In this document: positions 1-5,927 of the stretch, piece after piece
Numbering within the stretch: position 1 is the stretch's first letter
How the letters are laid out: each line of letters begins with the position of its first letter
DNA from: Raphidiopsis brookii D9
GTDB taxonomy: Bacteria > Cyanobacteriota > Cyanobacteriia > Cyanobacteriales > Nostocaceae
Length of the DNA: 5,927 nt
Direction of reading: 5' to 3'
NCBI GenBank assembly: GCA_000175855.1
Contig: ACYB01000028.1
Location: forward strand, 1 to 5,927
Program-made: the position numbers and the translations under genes
The notes under the pieces: generated by a model
Databases searched by the model: none
What the model was told of the DNA's origin: nothing
The model's input: only the letters and a program-made list of their open reading frames with translations

Positions 1-778
1 CCGGTGGTAGTTTATCAACTAAACCTATTAGTAATTCGGTGCGATACTTTTCATCCTGAATTTGTCTAGCAATAGAGAGAGCTTCTGGTAATACTGAGGG
101 CAGTTTATCAGCTAAATCTATTAGTGCATAAGTGCGCCTGTATTCATCCTGAATTTGCCTGGCACTAGAAAGCGCCTCTGAAAGCACTGATTCTTGCAGA
201 TCATTTGGTAAATAGTCAACTAAACTTGTAAGTAAATGCGCTTTTACTGTGAGATCTGAGCTTTGTAAAATATGAGAAAGCGTTTGTTCAGGTGTCCAAA
301 TATTTTCTCTCACTAGGGCAATTAGTAATTTTGCCGGTAAGTTCGCTACTAGGCTATTCATGGATGTAATAATTAGGGCATAGCGACATTGCCATCCCAC
401 AACTTCACTGGGGTTGGTTTTATTCCAGGACTCTTCTGCTAATCCCCATGCCCGACGTACATCATTGATAAAGATAGCTATTTTTCCTGTCCGATTACAA
501 GTTTCATACCAACCGTTGTTTCCATCTGGGGTTTCCTCTTGTAATAGTTTATGTATGTCTGTATTTTGGTTGCCTTTTTGAAAATGCCAGGTTAAATGGG
601 CATTGATATACCCATCTTCGGGTAATGTGTGCCATTTTCCTGAATCGATTTTTTCTTCGTACCGCTTTAATAATTCTCTATGAGCATCTATTATGTTTAA
701 TCCTAATCCTGGCAGTTTTTCTGGTTGTTTAGGATTTTCTCTGCTGTAATTAATTTTGTTGCTAGGTCGTGTAAAAGG
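1..778 (-). CDS. 3' continuation of the same STAND gene in the -1 frame. It is partial, runs off the left edge, and is not in the supplied ORF track. It comprises an Apaf-1 HD2-like helical region followed by HEAT/ARM-like repeats.
   Basis: This is my own minus-strand translation (codon 700..698 = L, last full codon 4..2 = P). There are 259 stop-free codons from the TGA at 781..779 to the window edge: PFTRPSNKINYSRENPKQPEKLPGLGLNIIDAHRELLKRYEEKIDSGKWHTLPEDGYINAHLTWHFQKGNQNTDIHKLLQEETPDGNNGWYETCNRTGKIAIFINDVRRAWGLAEESWNKTNPSEVVGWQCRYALIITSMNSLVANLPAKLLIALVRENIWTPEQTLSHILQSSDLTVKAHLLTSLVDYLPNDLQESVLSEALSSARQIQDEYRRTYALIDLADKLPSVLPEALSIARQIQDEKYRTELLIGLVDKLPP. The first 126 codons contain no ATG, GTG or TTG (first GTG 400..398, first ATG 361..359). 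The region therefore cannot be an independent gene over its clearly coding-looking 5' part. Confidence 0.75.
2..340 (-). repeat. In-frame coding repeats of the STAND C-terminus (HEAT/ARM-like units starting with LP). Unit lengths are 43, 36 and 31 aa, and the array continues beyond the window.
   Basis: Units: LPAKLLIALVRENIWTPEQTLSHILQSSDLTVKAHLLTSLVDY (340..212); LPNDLQESVLSEALSSARQIQDEYRRTYALIDLADK (211..104); LPSVLPEALSIARQIQDEKYRTELLIGLVDK (103..11); LPP... (10..2). An identical 15-nt core ttcatcctgaatttg occurs at 50-64 and 143-157 (93-nt period). Flanking similarity tttatca[a/g]ctaaa[c/t]ctattag occurs at 11-33 and 104-126. Confidence 0.7.
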
Positions 779-2280
779 TCATGTATTCTGTAGGTTGGTT
801 TCTCCTTAAATTCAATTTTTCCCCTTTGTAATAATGACTTAGATGCAATTCTCCTTAATATCCGATAGGCTTTTTCAGGATTAACTCCCCACAGTGTTGC
901 TGCCATTTTATGGGTAATCACTACGTCTTCCGGTAAAATTCCAAACCAAATAAATTGTTTTAATTCTTCTTGTGTTAAGGATTTTAAGCTGAGGTTAAAA
1001 CAGGCTTCTAGGGAATATTTTTTACGTTTCTCCTCATTAGAAGTAGAATTTTCTATATCTAGGTACTCTAGTCTAGCGATTTCCTCTGTTAGATAGTCTA
1101 ATAATTCTTGCCAGGTACTGTCATTAGCAATTTGACAGGCTACTAATTCTAATGCTAAAGGTAGGTAGCCAACTTTTTTCGCTAATTGTTTAGCCAGATC
1201 TTGTTCTGATGGTTTTAGATCTGTTTGCAGGTGACTTTTGAGAAGTTCTAGGGATTCGCTTTCTGTCATTACACCTAGTTCATATCGATTTGCACCGGAG
1301 ATAAAGACTTGTCTTGTTGTTACTATTACTCGACAATTGTTACCACCCACCTGAAAATATTCAACGTGTTCTGACTCCCAAGCATCATCGACTACTATCA
1401 AGATTTTTTTGTTGTTAAGTAATGTTTGTAAATGCCTTTTAGCATCTTCTTCTTTTAGCGGTTTATAATTATAATCTCCTAATTCTTGAATCCAACTGTT
1501 TAATAATTGCAGACAGTCTGGTTCCTTACCCAAGGTTGCCCACAGGATTCCATCGCTAAAATATGTTTTTACATCCTCCTCATGAGCTATAGCAGCAGCT
1601 AAAGTTGATTTTCCAATACCTCCTAGTCCGAAAATACTGGTAATTAGTAAGGTTCCTTCTTCACTATGTTGGTTGAGTAATTTTTCTTTTAATTTTTCAT
1701 GGTGTATTGAACGTTTTACACAAAAACGCGGTAGGGAAGGTACTTGGTAGGGTTTTTTCAGGGTAATTCCATTATCTGGCTTCTTTTTTAAATTTGTACT
1801 TCTTTCTCCACATAGAGATGCAAAAGCAGCAGTTAAAACAGTAAAGCAAAGTTTTGCTGTATGCTTATCTGGTTTAAAGTTATGCTTTAGTTGTTCGTAT
1901 GGATGAATATAATTTCTAAAATCTCGTAAAGTGTGGCTATGTTTTTGAACATCAAGATCTATTAACCCTATGTCGAAAGCAACATCAATGAATTCGGCAA
2001 GAATCCAGTGTTGAAATCTCTTGACCTTAACTTTATCTTTATCTTTTGGTGCTTTGTTACATTTATTAAAAATTTCCGGATTTTCTTCCGCTGCTCCCCG
2101 CAAAACCCCTTCGAGTAAACTGCCACAAAGAAAAACTACGGATAAATAGCATTCTGAATCAAATACCTTTTTAGCTTCTATCCATCTATACTTTAGAAGC
2201 TCGAGTACAGACTCACTTACTGGAAGCTGATTCCAGCTCCAGTCGGTTTTTTCTGGAAATAATTCAGATTCGTTATTCAC
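703..2280 (-). CDS. NB-ARC / AP-ATPase-type STAND NTPase with an N-terminal HEPN-like all-alpha domain. This is the 5' portion of a gene whose reading frame breaks within 703-778.
   Basis: Based on the 525-aa ORF-track product. Motifs read directly, in canonical NB-ARC order: Walker A GLGGIGKST (aa 218-226, nt 1603-1629); Walker B/kinase-2 ILIVVDDAW (aa 293-301, nt 1378-1404); RNBS-B/sensor-1-like RVIVTTR (aa 317-323); GLPL-type GYLPLAL (aa 371-377); MHD-equivalent IHD within YRIHDLLHDLA (aa 497-507). The start is GTG at 2280. The only AAGGAG (2301..2296) lies 15 nt upstream, which is long spacing, so the exact start is uncertain. There is no in-frame ATG before aa 338. Confidence 0.88.
   Translation of the reverse strand: MNNESELFPEKTDWSWNQLPVSESVLELLKYRWIEAKKVFDSECYLSVVFLCGSLLEGVLRGAAEENPEIFNKCNKAPKDKDKVKVKRFQHWILAEFIDVAFDIGLIDLDVQKHSHTLRDFRNYIHPYEQLKHNFKPDKHTAKLCFTVLTAAFASLCGERSTNLKKKPDNGITLKKPYQVPSLPRFCVKRSIHHEKLKEKLLNQHSEEGTLLITSIFGLGGIGKSTLAAAIAHEEDVKTYFSDGILWATLGKEPDCLQLLNSWIQELGDYNYKPLKEEDAKRHLQTLLNNKKILIVVDDAWESEHVEYFQVGGNNCRVIVTTRQVFISGANRYELGVMTESESLELLKSHLQTDLKPSEQDLAKQLAKKVGYLPLALELVACQIANDSTWQELLDYLTEEIARLEYLDIENSTSNEEKRKKYSLEACFNLSLKSLTQEELKQFIWFGILPEDVVITHKMAATLWGVNPEKAYRILRRIASKSLLQRGKIEFKEKPTYRIHDLLHDLATKLITAEKILNNQKNCQD
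1807..2223 (-). other. N-terminal putative effector domain (aa ~20-158) of the STAND protein; candidate HEPN-like helical domain
   Basis: The segments have helix-like hydrophobic periodicity: SVLELLKYRWIEAKKVF / CYLSVVFLCGSLLEGVLRGAAEE / Lys-rich insert NKCNKAPKDKDKVKVKRF / ILAEFIDVAFDIGLIDLDVQKHSHTLRDFRNYIHP / DKHTAKLCFTVLTAAFASL. R119-x6-H126 (RDFRNYIH, nt 1903-1926) fits the HEPN Rx4-6H rule. The inner RNYIH is only Rx3H. I recognised no named family. Confidence 0.4.
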
Positions 2281-2490
2281 TGTATTGGAAGTTAACTCCT
2301 TAATTTGTATTTGTTTATCATCTACACTACTCTAAGTATACTCGGGATAACTTTTTCTTGTGTTGATTTTGCTTTATCCCCATTAACAACTAACATGACG
2401 CACCAGAGAATTTTTATAAGTATAAATTATGTGTGTTGTTATTTTTAGTAATTAAATCTGTTCTTGATTAAGAGCGTAAAATTAGGAAAA

Positions 2491-2498
2491 GCGATCGC
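2491..2498. repeat. HIP1 palindrome GCGATCGC (cyanobacterial highly iterated palindrome)
   Basis: Exact 8-mer read in the sequence, in intergenic DNA. Confidence 0.9.
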
Positions 2499-2608
2499 AC
2501 GTAATCAAGAAAACGGGGCAAAACTCAGCAATAGGATAAAGTATGTTTTCCTACATTTTGTGTATAATCTGAGTTATGGTGGCTCTATAACAATAAAAAT
2601 AACTAAAG

Positions 2609-2674
2609 GTCAACTAATCCCACTATCTTTTAGTCAAGTTTCGTCAAGACAATTCTGTCCGTGGGATTGTTGAC
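2609..2674. promoter_or_regulatory. Interrupted inverted repeat (potential RNA hairpin or protein-binding site) in the divergent intergenic region
   Basis: Arm gtcaactaatcccac (2609-2623) pairs with arm gtgggattgttgac (2661-2674), giving 14 bp with one bulged T and a 37-nt loop. The loop contains gtcaag twice (2633-2638, 2643-2648). ccgtggg[a/t]tt is repeated at 2659-2668 and 2689-2698. Function unknown. Confidence 0.35.
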
Positions 2675-2926
2675 TTGAAAGTTTACTACCGTGGGTTTCG
2701 ATATGTCCGGTAAATGTTAAAAATGCTTCCGGAACAAACTGAAGATCTACCCTAGGATAGATGTGGAGATAACTTTTGATGTATTAAAGTGCTTTTGTTT
2801 ACATTTCATGTAAGGGTTTTGTGGAAGACTATAAATTTCTTCCACCAGCTAAAAATCACGAATCCCCTGACTCTTGTAGCTGTAGCTCAAGAGTACCAAG
2901 AAACAACATGTATTACCATTAAAAAA

Positions 2927-2931
2927 AAGGA
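2927..2931 (+). promoter_or_regulatory. Shine-Dalgarno-like AAGGA for the 2941 GTG start
   Basis: AAGGA lies 9 nt upstream of the GTG at 2941. The nearby ATG at 2934 runs into a stop after 3 codons. Confidence 0.5.
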
Positions 2932-2940
2932 AATGTTATT

Positions 2941-3471
2941 GTGAGAGTCTTGTTCATTTCTACCTTCCTTCTTTCCATAGGGATATTTAATCCAGCACTT
3001 GGTGGTTATAATTATGAGTTTGAGTATGATAGATTTAGTGATTCCAAGAAAGCTACTTTCCAGGCAAATATTGGCAGCGAGTGTAAATTACTTGTTTCTA
3101 AAAAGGGAGAACTGAGATATTGTAGTTTTTCTTACGAGGATCCAAATGAAGGAGGAGTTTACCCAGTGATAGCTGTAGGTACAAGCTCAGATGATTGGGA
3201 TATTACCGACAACGGAAAATCAACATTTTTAGATGATATAAATACCATAATTACCTATAATGATAACACAACATCCAGAGTAAAATTGAAGGCTTCGACC
3301 CTAGGAAAGGAGATAACTCAGTATAACATTTTTGCCGAGGTCGTCATGGTTCATCTTGGTCAAATTTTAGATGAGTTAACTAACATTAAGCAAATCGAAT
3401 TTAAATATGGTTCAAATGAGTATCTATTCATTATTGACCAAAAATTAACTAAAAAAGACACTGAACTTTGA
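2941..3471 (+). CDS. Hypothetical exported protein, 176 aa, with an N-terminal signal peptide
   Basis: The N-terminus MRVLFISTFLLSIGIFNPALG-GY has a positive residue, a hydrophobic core and an A-x-G signal-peptidase-I-like site. There is no lipobox Cys. An SD sits at suitable spacing. The mature part has two Cys (C48, C61) and looks beta-rich. I recognised no family. Confidence 0.65.
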   Translation: MRVLFISTFLLSIGIFNPALGGYNYEFEYDRFSDSKKATFQANIGSECKLLVSKKGELRYCSFSYEDPNEGGVYPVIAVGTSSDDWDITDNGKSTFLDDINTIITYNDNTTSRVKLKASTLGKEITQYNIFAEVVMVHLGQILDELTNIKQIEFKYGSNEYLFIIDQKLTKKDTEL

Positions 3472-3709
3472 AAAGTAGATTTTCCTTCTTATATTAGTGA
3501 GCTAGTGAGCCGAAATTATGTGTCAATTTCTCATCAATGCTTTTGAACTTGATGATTTCAAGTGTTATGGAATCCGGTTCTCCTAGTGAGTAGGTAAAAA
3601 AGTTGGAGATGCAGGGTTTACAGCTATTTTCATGTATTTAAACTACGAAATGAGGTAAACTATAATAAGAGTGATAAACTAAAATAGACTAAAAATATTG
3701 TTAAATTAT

Positions 3710-3988
3710 ATGCCAAAACCTTATTCAGTAGATTTGCGTAATCGTGTAATTGTAGCATGGGCGGCTCAAGAGGGATCTCAACGCCAGTTGGCAGACAGAT
3801 TTAAGGTTAGCTTGTCATTTGTGAGAAATTTAGTACGTCGTTATCGTGAAACTGGTCAGGTTGAGCCAAAGCAATGTGGAGGATACGAAAAGCCTATAAT
3901 TGAAGGACAATATTTAAACATGATCAAGGCTTGGATCGATGAGAAAAATGATTTACTACTTTCAGAATTATGCGATCGCCTTTCTTAA
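3710..3988 (+). pseudogene. IS630-family (IS895-like) transposase, N-terminal helix-turn-helix portion only, ending at an in-frame TAA
   Basis: MPKPYSVDLRNRVIVAWAAQEGSQRQLADRFKVSLSFVRNLVRRYRETGQVEPKQCGGYEKPII... matches the MPxPYSxDLRxxVI...FxVSxxxVxxxxxRxxxTGxxxPK..GG pattern that I recall for cyanobacterial IS630/IS895 transposase N-termini. The likely true start is the ATG at 3710; the ORF-track TTG at 3698 adds 4 codons. The 93-aa product lacks any catalytic domain. Confidence 0.85.
3972..3979. repeat. HIP1 palindrome GCGATCGC
   Basis: Exact 8-mer inside the transposase fragment (it encodes CDR). Confidence 0.9.
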
Positions 3989-4010
3989 TTTCCTGGATCA
4001 GTATCCTTGA

Positions 4011-4385
4011 GCATTAGATAGTCTTTATCTTGATATCTTTGACCATGACCAGAAAAAAAGAACCACAGATTGTCTCCTGATAGAATTTATCGAAACTGAA
4101 GAAAGTTATACCTCTAAAAGTTCTTTTTTGGATAATGATATCCTACCTTCACTCGGCGAAAAACCTGAGGGGTGGGAACCATCTGGAAACCGTAGTGGTA
4201 GACTTTTCAAATCTGCTGCGATCGCTCTATGGAAAAGGGTTTTTAAAAAGTCATTTTGCAATTTACCACTGACTTTGAAAACGCCCTGGTTGAGATGGTG
4301 GGATAATCGAGGCAATTTGCTGTTGACGGGGAATGAGCGTGCTGAAGATGAGTGTCGGGGTTTTTACCATCCCCATCATAGATAG
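4011..4385 (+). pseudogene. Degenerate, truncated DDE-domain remnant of the same IS630-family transposase, in a different frame
   Basis: The frame is open for 125 codons from 4011 and includes ORF-track 4128..4385: ALDSLYLDIFDHDQKKRTTDCLLIEFIETEESYTSKSSFLDNDILPSLGEKPEGWEPSGNRSG...LPLTLKTPWLRWWDNRGN.... The spacing of KK, EF, FLD(E) (first catalytic D), W-x-P-x-G-x-R and a later DN (second catalytic D) follows the IS630/IS895 layout as I recall it (..RKKKT..EF..LVFLDETG....G.R....VVMDN..H). The region between the two D motifs is shortened. The C-terminal third, which would hold the last catalytic residue, is missing. Confidence 0.5.
4218..4225. repeat. HIP1 palindrome GCGATCGC
   Basis: Exact 8-mer inside the transposase remnant. 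Confidence 0.9.
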
Positions 4386-4452
4386 GATATTCATCAGCGT
4401 GCGATCACAATTTCCACCCATTCCTCCTTATATCGATTACAAGTTGTTAAAT

Positions 4453-4460
4453 GCGATCGC
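4453..4460. repeat. HIP1 palindrome GCGATCGC
   Basis: Exact 8-mer 15 nt beyond the TerD stop codon. A near-copy, GCGATCAC, lies at 4401-4408. Confidence 0.9.
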
Positions 4461-4474
4461 ACAGTTTTGGCTTG

Positions 4475-5668
4475 CTACATGTAATAATGTGCAATTTCCC
4501 GCAGTCCATTGATCTTAATACCATTACCTATTGCTGCTAACTTCCACTCCTCCTTATACCGATATATTTCTGCCATAATCATTCCAGTCATTCCTTTGTA
4601 TTCAATTCCCGATAGATTGTACCGAGCAAGTTCTTTGTTGTTAGCCATATCGACTAAGCGTACAAATGCATTTCTAACCTGACAAAAATCTTGTTCTCTT
4701 GCTACACAGTCATAGATATTAACCGTGAAAATTAGTTTGCTAATTTGTGATGGGACTAAGGGAAGATCAACAATGATTTGTTCATCGTCTCCCTCTCCTT
4801 CACCCGTTAAGTTATCTCCTAGGTGAGTAATTGCTCCTGATTTATGTGTGAGATTGCCAAAATAAACAATATTCCCAACGTCACTGATTTTTCCATTGTT
4901 GTCCAAACAGATTACTGAAGCATCCAGGTCGTAATTCTTTTTATTGGTGAACATACCCAATAACCCCCCTCCAGTTTGTTCTACCACATCCCAACCCAGT
5001 CCACAAATAATTTTCTTTAGTCCAGGAGCTTCTTTGGTGAGTGAAATACGTTGTCCTTTCTGTAAATTGATAGCCATAATTTGTACTTTCCTTAAGCTAT
5101 AACGATCTAGTAATGCTTTCAAACCTCCCTGATAACCCGCCCCTACTGCATTAAGAGACCATTCTCCATCTTTACGATATAACTCAGCCATAATTAGTGC
5201 AGTTTCAATAGAGTAATCTTCTGCTAGGTCATAACGTACAGCTTCTTGTTTGTTCTGAGCATTTACTATACGAATAAAAGCATTTTGTACTTGTCCAAAA
5301 TTTTGACGACGTTGCTGCGCTTCGTGAATTGTTACTGTAATAACAATCCTTTTGACCTCCTCAGGTACTTTTTTGAGGTTAATTTTAATAACTTCATCAT
5401 CTCCGTCTCCAAAACCCGTCAAGTTATCTCCCGTATGTTGGACTGACTTACCAGGATCTGGACTGACAAGATTATTATAAAAGATGAAATGATCATCTGA
5501 AATCAGTTTTTCATTAGCACCAAGTAAAAATACTGATGAGTCTAGATCAAAATCAAATCCCGTGTCAGTTGTTTTAACATCCCATCCCAATCCTACAAAT
5601 AGCTCTGACAATCCAGGTGCCACTTTTTCTAGTGATACTCTCTGACCTTTTGTTAATGAAACAGCCAT
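4475..5668 (-). CDS. Tandem two-domain TerD-family protein (TerD/TerE/TerZ-type Ca2+-binding stress / tellurium-resistance domain, two copies)
   Basis: 397 aa. Domain 1 (aa 1-190, nt 5099-5668) reads MAVSLTKGQRVSL..GLGWD..DFDLDSS..GDNLTGFGDGDDE (nt 5393-5431)..AELYRKDGEW..GG. Domain 2 (aa 198-397, nt 4478-5077) reads MAINLQKGQRISL..GLGWD..YDLDAS..GDNLTGEGEGDDE (nt 4781-4819)..AEIYRYKEEWKL. Both copies keep the DxDxS and GDNxTGxGxGDDE Ca2+-site signatures typical of TerD domains. AAGGAG lies 10 nt upstream of the ATG at 5668. Confidence 0.92.
   Translation of the reverse strand: MAVSLTKGQRVSLEKVAPGLSELFVGLGWDVKTTDTGFDFDLDSSVFLLGANEKLISDDHFIFYNNLVSPDPGKSVQHTGDNLTGFGDGDDEVIKINLKKVPEEVKRIVITVTIHEAQQRRQNFGQVQNAFIRIVNAQNKQEAVRYDLAEDYSIETALIMAELYRKDGEWSLNAVGAGYQGGLKALLDRYSLRKVQIMAINLQKGQRISLTKEAPGLKKIICGLGWDVVEQTGGGLLGMFTNKKNYDLDASVICLDNNGKISDVGNIVYFGNLTHKSGAITHLGDNLTGEGEGDDEQIIVDLPLVPSQISKLIFTVNIYDCVAREQDFCQVRNAFVRLVDMANNKELARYNLSGIEYKGMTGMIMAEIYRYKEEWKLAAIGNGIKINGLREIAHYYM
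5088..5093 (-). promoter_or_regulatory. Internal Shine-Dalgarno-like AAGGAA inside the TerD linker, 10 nt upstream of the in-frame ATG at 5077..5075 (Met198)
   Basis: The minus strand reads agc tTA Agg aaa gta caa att ATG. AAGGAA-N10-ATG has the same geometry as the AAGGAG-N10-ATG at the gene start. An out-of-frame TAA (5094..5092) overlaps the SD. Confidence 0.45.
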
Positions 5669-5678
5669 ACAACATGTT

Positions 5679-5684
5679 CTCCTT
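5679..5684 (-). promoter_or_regulatory. Shine-Dalgarno AAGGAG of the TerD gene
   Basis: The minus strand reads caAGGAGaacatgttgtATG, with 10-nt spacing to the ATG at 5668. Confidence 0.6.
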
Positions 5685-5927
5685 GTTGCTTTTTTAACTT
5701 ATGTGTAAAAAACTGTTTGACAAGTCCAGAGTTAAAACCTTCAATTGTTCAATTAAGTAAGTATGAATAAACAAGGTAAATCCGGAACTTCACCTAAGTG
5801 TTATTTAGGTGCTACTAACAATAAGTAATTAGATTATTTTTAAACATCTATCTTAGGGTGGATATTTTTAAGGAATTATGTAACATCTGTTCGGGATAAG
5901 CTGAAACTGTCTCCGTCTATTAAAGGC

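Follow-up and report, generated by a model that had tools for sequence, protein, structure and literature searches.

A window of 5,927 nucleotides (nt) from the cyanobacterium Raphidiopsis brookii D9 (contig ACYB01000028.1 of assembly GCA_000175855.1, positions 1 to 5,927 of the forward strand) encodes an Apaf-1/NLR-like protein in which an unannotated, all-alpha N-terminal domain precedes an NB-ARC NTPase. By sequence homology, this domain falls into the DUF4145-like HEPN assemblage as a divergent branch, one that escapes the current Pfam model, and it is probably the N-terminal RNase effector of an Apaf-1/NLR-type STAND protein, switched on by oligomerization of the NTPase. A first-pass annotation of the window, made from the sequence letters alone, had proposed an HEPN-type effector belonging to no family that could be named; DUF4145 homology, Foldseek matches, motif conservation, and the position in an effector slot bear out the first half of this proposal, whereas the second half gives way to a DUF4145-like branch. 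The assignment offers a probable function for an N-terminus that lacked annotation in a cyanobacterial Apaf-1/NLR-like protein, and it links a family of 2,581 sequence clusters, whose listed members are mostly named ‘hypothetical protein’, to the HEPN/DUF4145 nucleases.

Homology, motif, and fold of the N-terminal domain

Amino acids (aa) 1–170 gave no match to Pfam, NCBIfam, or PADLOC even at E ≤ 10, so the label ‘unrecognized’ that the domain had first received is accurate. The proposed search of Pfam profiles returned nothing for the segment itself and a faint signal in its relatives: 14 of 42 close family members have sub-threshold matches to Pfam DUF4145 (best E = 0.0067) whose alignments stop right at the His-Pro in the motif described below, and the best score in this close family is 16.9 bits against a gathering cutoff of 23.1 bits, a threshold that the window domain does not reach. 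More distant homologues supply the decisive sequence evidence. When plasmids were searched by tblastn, Streptomyces, Paraburkholderia, and Deinococcus yielded relatives at 30% identity in which LRxxRNxxHP is retained, and the relatives of the Streptomyces protein include two, P0278 and P0280, with precomputed PF13643 matches, as well as one protein that NCBI names DUF4145. Eleven of the 15 members of the P0278/P0280 subfamily (profile A3) match DUF4145, the best at 2.6e-6. The window domain aligns by BLASTP with P0278 at 9e-18 and with P0280 at 3e-15 (31–32% identity over ~130 aa), and an hhalign comparison of the subfamily profiles A2 and A3 gives a probability of 99.8% and an E-value of 1.4e-28, with the motifs in register. 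As Pfam assigns DUF4145 (PF13643) to its HEPN clan, CL0291 (PMC3710099), the domain is placed in the DUF4145-like HEPN assemblage; the sub-threshold score, taken with the strong homology to PF13643 proteins, makes it a relative of DUF4145 rather than a member of the current Pfam model.

The signature of the branch, LRxFRNYIHP, is an Arg/His motif that reads LRDFRNYIHP in the window protein; its conservation was counted in 149 representatives of 50%-identity clusters. R122 and H126 are present in 149/149 representatives, N123 in 148/149, P127 in 147/149, and R119 in 144/149, with Lys in four of the others; position 120 is D, E, or N in 138/149. The acidic residue suspected in helix 2, E57, is found in 148/148 representatives and has a counterpart in the DUF4145-positive subfamily, the invariant E184 of LLEGV, whilst a second glutamate, E35, is invariant in 42 sequences. 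All four residues singled out for a conservation check (R119, R122, H126, and E57) are thus conserved, and this motif conservation is far beyond chance. As described in the literature, an HEPN domain has a core of four helices, with an insert separating helices 2 and 3 and an Rx4-6H motif where helix 3 ends in a distorted stretch (PMC3710099). In the window protein, R119...H126 is an Rx6H with a polar residue, D120, following the Arg, and it falls in the broken helical segments at aa 116–132. The inner R122-N123...H126, in contrast, reads RNYIH, an Rx3H outside the accepted HEPN spacing, and the early caveat that only R119...H126 fits the HEPN rule still applies. Judged by position, the catalytic Arg more likely corresponds to R119, and N123 would be the conserved polar residue.

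An AlphaFold2 model of the domain, built from a 42-sequence alignment, is an all-alpha bundle with a predicted local distance difference test (pLDDT) score of 87.1 and a predicted template modeling (pTM) score of 0.82. Long helices occupy aa 23–41, 45–66, 94–103, and 139–156; the third helix (94–132) is broken, and the short segments at aa 109–132 carry the Arg/His motif. The compact core of two alpha-hairpins is the four-helix layout that had been guessed from the sequence, and the placement of the motif before the last helix and of an insert between helices 2 and 3 (aa 74–93) matches the published HEPN description (PMC3710099). This insert was rightly located from its Lys-rich stretch, though it is not low-complexity filler: it is modeled with high confidence, P78, V86, K87, F89, and W92 are conserved, and it is shorter or absent in the Streptomyces-type subfamily, where the hhalign and BLASTP alignments show a gap. 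The suggested structure prediction and Foldseek search against the Protein Data Bank (PDB) returned HEPN domains as 18 of the 25 top matches, each of them weak (E 0.35–5), with target-normalized template modeling (TM) scores of ~0.6 and probabilities of up to 0.94 (1ufb, TT1696). They include the HEPN toxin 7ae8/7ae6, HepT (6m6u, 5yep, 7bxo), Csm6 (5fsh), TM0613 (1o3u), AF0298 (2hsb), and sacsin (3o10); the HEPN matches cluster at the top, and most non-HEPN matches have query-normalized TM scores below 0.3. Searches of PDB sequences with profiles A1, A2, and A3 gave chance-level matches only, which indicates that no detectable relative has a solved structure.

The effector slot and the stand-alone family

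The features of the gene, with the evidence for each in brackets, are as follows.

703–2280, minus strand: open reading frame (ORF) with a GTG start, 525 aa as read in the window, composed of the HEPN-like domain, a linker, NB-ARC, a winged helix, and a premature stop (ORF list)
1807–2223, minus strand: HEPN/DUF4145-like all-alpha domain, aa 20–158 (AlphaFold2 model, Foldseek, BLASTP, hhalign)
2110–2112, minus strand: codon of E57 in helix 2, within SLLEGVL, aa 54–60 (located in the translation)
2002–2061, minus strand: helix 2–3 insert, aa 74–93 (DSSP and pLDDT of the model, conservation)
aa 76–88 of ORF 703–2280, minus strand: Lys-rich stretch KAPKDKDKVKVKR (located in the translation)
1900–1929, minus strand: motif LRDFRNYIHP, aa 118–127 (located in the translation)
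1702–1806, minus strand: low-confidence linker between effector domain and NTPase, aa 159–193 (pLDDT below 50 from aa 163; no Pfam match)
1075–1701, minus strand: NB-ARC NTPase, aa 194–402 (Pfam PF00931, 102 bits)
1603–1629, minus strand: P-loop GLGGIGKST, aa 218–226 (NB-ARC motif)
1378–1404, minus strand: Walker B, ILIVVDDAW (NB-ARC motif)
1312–1332, minus strand: TTR motif, RVIVTTR (NB-ARC motif)
1150–1170, minus strand: GxP motif, GYLPLAL (NB-ARC motif)
760–951, minus strand: winged-helix domain (WHD), aa 444–507 (Pfam WH_DRP and APAF-1-like_WHD, sub-threshold)
766–789, minus strand: MHD-like RIHDLLHD (motif located inside the winged-helix domain)
735–738, minus strand: frameshift site, a run of four A (comparison with the reading frame of P0125 and P0285, introduced below)
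2–745, minus strand: out-of-frame continuation holding HD2, a helical domain of the APAF-1 type, and the first HEAT-like repeats (translation; APAF1_C, E 0.01)

The motifs on which the first reading of the domain was built (LRDFRNYIHP, SLLEGVL, and the Lys-rich stretch) all recur in the translation at the positions given for them, and its estimate of about 160 aa ahead of the NTPase agrees with the ~160–190 aa found there, given a P-loop at aa 218–226. The NTPase scores 102 bits in the 525-aa ORF against a Pfam cutoff of 23.5 (E = 3.9e-29), and its Walker A, Walker B, TTR, GxP, and MHD-type motifs are all intact; profile and motifs alike identify an NB-ARC/AP-ATPase STAND NTPase. The predicted architecture of the intact gene is, from the N-terminus, the HEPN-like domain, NB-ARC, WHD, HD2, and HEAT-like repeats.

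Residues 1–515 are 98.25% identical to the Cylindrospermopsis raciborskii NB-ARC proteins P0125 (707 aa) and P0285 (927 aa, partial), a type of protein that public databases annotate as ‘NB-ARC domain-containing protein’ and nothing more; the exact window protein had no database record. The closest NB-ARC relatives in other cyanobacteria are 45–64% identical over the NTPase and helical part, and their N-termini carry Trypsin, Peptidase_C14 (caspase), CHAT, TIR_2, EAD1/EAD4, or nothing. Because related NB-ARC proteins carry differing effectors there, the N-terminal position is a swappable effector slot; the expectation, drawn from STAND/NLR proteins in general, that an effector would sit at this end therefore finds its counterpart in the proteases, TIR, and EAD domains of the relatives. 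The window protein shares with these Apaf-1-like proteins the NB-ARC, WHD, and HD2 core and the effector position, and it differs from them in having an HEPN/DUF4145-like domain in place of a caspase, trypsin, CHAT, or TIR effector, one more case of bacterial STAND immune proteins exchanging their N-terminal effectors. Relatives that join the domain to an NB-ARC-type protein were limited in our searches to P0125, P0285, and the 89%-identical metagenomic P0001, and the Cylindrospermopsis cluster is alone among the top 150 representatives in having the NB-ARC fusion, which we take to be a lineage-specific acquisition. PADLOC models, including those for Avs and other anti-phage STAND proteins, matched neither the window protein, nor its N-terminal domain, nor P0125.

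Outside this lineage, the domain belongs to a large and mostly stand-alone family. A search with aa 1–175 against a collection of 5.8 billion proteins gave 734 homologues, nearly all of them ~275-aa proteins without a Pfam domain in which the match covers the C-terminal 145 aa at 50–60% identity. A HMMER search with the domain-only profile A2 against 1.84 billion representatives of 50%-identity clusters yielded 2,581 clusters at E ≤ 1e-3, 335 of them at E ≤ 1e-30; the family members listed lack a Pfam domain. The first 130 residues of the ~275-aa homologues (P0063; L001 8001–8828) form a conserved N-terminal domain, MSSLT..KRYLE..GYVLD...YGTSKAKKMRAFWE, without a Pfam match, which might be the ‘AbiJ-NTD1’ reported as fused to DUF4145 (PMC3710099). 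The domain is also found behind tetratricopeptide repeats (TPRs) in P0160, and N-terminally in P0133 (509 aa), P0221 (1080 aa), and P0258 (1066 aa), joined to helical modules of ~350–900 aa that resemble one another; these modules have no Pfam match and no PADLOC match, a Dsr1/Avs7-type sensor having been sought, and might represent a further class of sensor for this effector. Phage genomes contained no homologue of the domain.

Genome context was read for the best 80 of 492 genome loci, none of which is cyanobacterial. In 17 of these 80, the gene lies in a Type I restriction-modification (R-M) operon, nearly always in the order hsdM-hsdS-X-hsdR, and in a further 23–24 it occupies the middle of an MmeI-like methyltransferase-X-DEAD/ResIII helicase operon, so that about half of the loci lie inside R-M operons. 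The MmeI-type operon (L010, L012, L019, L030, L033, and ~19 other genome loci) begins with a 917-aa R-M/methyltransferase gene in which each of the five MmeI Pfam domains is present; the ~275-aa HEPN-like gene overlaps its end by 4 nt and is followed by a 685-aa DEAD/ResIII helicase, and this three-gene operon is as frequent as the hsdM-hsdS-X-hsdR arrangement. Individual other loci adjoin HigB and an HNH gene, or Abi_alpha and an integrase. On a Paraburkholderia plasmid (L089, 4563–6646), a family member is translationally coupled to a PIN_12 gene with an adjoining integrase array, and on a Streptomyces chartreusis plasmid (L090, 181–5381), another is coupled to a 1453-aa helicase that matches PADLOC MkoA/PDC-S37, with TIGR02679/TIGR02680 genes close by. 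DUF4145 has been described as associated with R-M, TerD, and McrBC, and as fused to AbiJ-NTD1 (PMC3710099). In agreement with that survey, the R-M, toxin-type, and fusion contexts argue for a mobile effector module of defense systems. The same predicted nuclease domain is under NB-ARC control in one lineage, while many other lineages have it in restriction operons of the Type I or MmeI-like kind.

Proposed activation, known systems, and competing explanations

In the mechanism that we consider probable, the C-terminal repeats would bind a ligand derived from an invader or from stress, the NB-ARC module would swap its nucleotide and oligomerize, and the N-terminal HEPN domains would be forced together into a composite Arg/His active site, as in HEPN dimers. 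The activated domain would then cleave cellular or viral RNA in a metal-independent manner, leading to cell arrest or death, that is, abortive infection. Since the HEPN active site forms across the dimer interface, proximity would switch on RNA cleavage. RNase L and Ire1 are analogues for such a proximity-activated RNase.

The closest experimental precedent is RAZR (PD-T7-4), the single DUF4145 protein with a biochemical characterization, whose DUF4145 is an HEPN domain that cleaves single-stranded RNA and requires R146 and H154; cleavage occurs only after higher-order assembly on phage rings (PMC13017515). The two proteins have in common a homologous DUF4145-type domain, an Arg...His motif, and a defense context, whereas activation by oligomerization is only proposed for the window protein; moreover, 7AE6, on which the RAZR DUF4145 was superposed, is among the best PDB matches of the window domain (PMC13017515). 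They differ in motif spacing (x7 in R146...H154, as opposed to R-x6-H with a second invariant Arg, RxxRNxxHP) and in layout: RAZR has an N-terminal Cys4 zinc-finger sensor and a C-terminal DUF4145, while the window domain is N-terminal, lacks a zinc finger, is fused to NB-ARC, has a conserved helix 2–3 insert, and has no PADLOC match. RAZR and the window protein thus share the effector class only. A second precedent, the BREX-associated BxaP, has an N-terminal DUF4145 and a C-terminal HEAT-like domain, with an abortive-infection phenotype against T4 (PMC10799925). It resembles the window protein in the order of a DUF4145-type domain and helical repeats, a likeness of architecture, and differs from it in having no STAND NTPase.

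The possibility that the protein represents an undescribed effector design can be set aside, as fusions of HEPN domains to STAND proteins are already on record. Npun_F6454, MED222_16016, and Desac_1927 combine HEPN with a STAND ATPase and TPR/S1 (PMC3710099), and Kibby et al. described HEPN effectors on bacterial NACHT proteins (10.1101/2022.07.19.500537). Shared with these fusions are the N-terminal HEPN effector (here a predicted RNase), the central STAND NTPase, and the C-terminal repeats, and one published example also comes from a filamentous cyanobacterium, Nostoc punctiforme (PMC3710099). The published examples, however, are filed as Swt1-like, whereas the window domain has no match to Pfam HEPN_Swt1 and links to DUF4145, and the window NTPase is of the NB-ARC/Apaf-1 type with HEAT-like repeats (Npun_F6454 was compared by its published description only). 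What is new is limited to three points: a DUF4145-like, not Swt1-like, branch is found on NB-ARC; this branch is large and unannotated; and it has the signature RxxRNxxHP. As an HEPN effector on an immune NTPase is a known design, the result fills an annotation gap without surprise and leaves the current picture of bacterial NLR-like immunity unchanged. Since current Pfam HEPN models miss the branch, a dedicated profile would improve the annotation of defense islands.

PrrC and RloC are anticodon nucleases embedded in Type I R-M loci, and the operon order prrA-prrB-prrC-prrD matches hsdM-hsdS-X-hsdR. The stand-alone homologues resemble PrrC/RloC in occupying the same position in Type I operons and in carrying an HEPN-type Arg/His motif. 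They differ from PrrC/RloC in having no ABC-ATPase N-domain, its place being taken by the unrelated ~130-aa N-terminal domain, and the window gene itself lies outside any R-M operon. A more far-reaching reading of these facts is that the LRxFRNYIHP branch forms a distinct, undescribed clade of R-M-embedded HEPN nucleases, in which RxxRNxxHP reflects a different catalytic geometry or substrate, and that Cylindrospermopsis has independently rewired one of its members under NB-ARC control. We regard this as speculative and rather unlikely; such a clade might, for example, guard Type I and MmeI-type systems by targeting tRNA in the manner of PrrC but without an ATPase. Were it true, it would constitute a natural experiment, with one toxin domain under two unrelated sensing modules.

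Several observations weigh against the proposal of an RNase effector, in addition to the sub-threshold DUF4145 scores given above. The most invariant pair of the motif, R122-N123, gives an Rx3H, shorter than any accepted HEPN spacing; the Ex3[KR] in which the upstream acidic residue of HEPN domains typically lies is present in the window sequence alone (E57...R61), its homologues having L61; and the gene is frameshifted in the window, with P0125 and P0001/L007 also disrupted, such that the locus may be decaying. The irregular inner spacing would fit an HEPN-like fold without catalysis, that is, an adaptor, regulatory, or ligand-binding module, which might recruit an effector or restrain the NTPase, comparable to the nucleotidyltransferase-attached HEPN domains that bind substrate. 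Several HEPN families are indeed non-catalytic (PMC3710099), and in neighboring NB-ARC paralogues this slot is often taken by adaptor-type EAD domains. Such non-catalytic domains, however, have typically lost the R/H motif (PMC3710099), whereas R122, H126, and E57 are invariant here and R119 is retained in 97%; furthermore, the stand-alone homologues sit in R-M operons at a position used by toxin-type HEPN genes, and the RAZR domain shows that a DUF4145 can be an active RNase (PMC13017515). A non-catalytic role is therefore improbable in our judgment.

Far less credible is a reading outside HEPN, in which the domain would be some generic four-helix bundle, for instance a coiled-coil or membrane-disrupting effector like the N-termini of plant coiled-coil NLRs (CC-NLRs), and the Arg/His motif would have a different role. 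Helical bundles give promiscuous weak matches, no Foldseek match reached E < 0.1, and the window sequence itself has no match in the Pfam HEPN clan; these points favor such a bundle. Against it stand the direct homology to Pfam-DUF4145 proteins, the profile–profile agreement, and the prevalence of HEPN domains at the head of the Foldseek list over poorly fitting non-HEPN structures. The charge of the domain is balanced (21 K+R, 20 D+E), and no hydrophobic or amphipathic membrane segment was seen by eye. An RNase effector thus remains the reading that we prefer.

State of this gene copy and neighboring features

The window carries a run of four A at 735–738 where the frame of P0125 and P0285 implies five (GAG AAA AAT CCT), and the ORF ends 11 codons past it: P0125 and P0285 read ...LITAEKNPKQPEKLPGLGL..., while the window ORF reads ...LITAEKILNNQKNCQD* at the frameshift. 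A tblastn comparison places aa 1–515 in frame -3 and aa 507–760 in frame -2, with the change between positions 736 and 763, and the rest of the gene continues in the other frame to the window edge. The out-of-frame part includes HD2 (Pfam APAF1_C, E 0.01) and HEAT-like repeats of ~31 aa (LPEALSxARQIQDEYRRxxALxxLADKLP) at ~5–290 on the minus strand; a TRF scan found no tandem repeat at the DNA level in this region. In P0285, at least eight HEAT-like repeats follow in frame at aa ~700–927; those of the window are present but out of frame after the A-run deletion. This 1-nt deletion unlinks the sensor part, and if it does not stem from faulty sequencing, the copy may have lost its activity.

Close relatives are broken as well. 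P0125, which belongs to a cluster of nine sequences, has an aberrant tail inside the repeats, where P0285 goes on. In the metagenomic sequences L007 (4928–5986) and L008, at 92.6% DNA identity, homology is lost at window position 1665, shortly ahead of the P-loop; what is left, in two independent assemblies, is a 235-aa ORF (P0001) with the HEPN-like domain and linker only. Counting the window and L007, three different disruptions are seen in close relatives. The loss of one base from a homopolymer could reflect either faulty sequencing or genuine decay, and it is quite possible, if not the outcome that we favor, that the gene is a pseudogene in this genome, with a real deletion and a 525-aa product that lacks HD2 and the repeat sensor and whose N-terminal domain is no longer a regulated effector. 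The frame change relative to P0125 and P0285, the broken relatives, and the presumed IS630-type fragment nearby (see below) are in keeping with decay. One base in a homopolymer, on the other hand, is a classic sequencing or assembly error, and aa 1–515 match the reference at 98% identity, show no further stop codon or indel, and keep the NTPase motifs intact. The question concerns the state of this copy and is orthogonal to the identity of the domain.

Scans of the window for Rfam families, tRNAs, and tandem repeats found nothing, and a promoter and terminator scan upstream of the NB-ARC gene stayed at background level. A 52-aa ORF at 1968–2126 on the minus strand, in another frame inside the HEPN-like domain, was rejected as spurious, because the main frame is strongly conserved at the protein level. 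On the same strand as the NB-ARC gene and 2.2 kb upstream of it lies a gene with two TerD domains (4475–5668, minus strand; Pfam 4.9e-153). TerD is listed among the operon partners of DUF4145 (PMC3710099), but ORFs on the plus strand stand between the two genes, and their linkage is doubtful. One of these intervening ORFs (96 aa, 3698–3988, plus strand) has only the helix-turn-helix (HTH) part of a transposase (Pfam HTH_23, HTH_28), which we take to be of the insertion sequence IS630 type; as no DDE domain follows the HTH, it appears to be a mobile-element remnant. The 176-aa ORF at 2941–3471 on the plus strand has no Pfam family and, by eye, a hydrophobic, signal-peptide-like N-terminus, and it is transcribed divergently from the NB-ARC gene.

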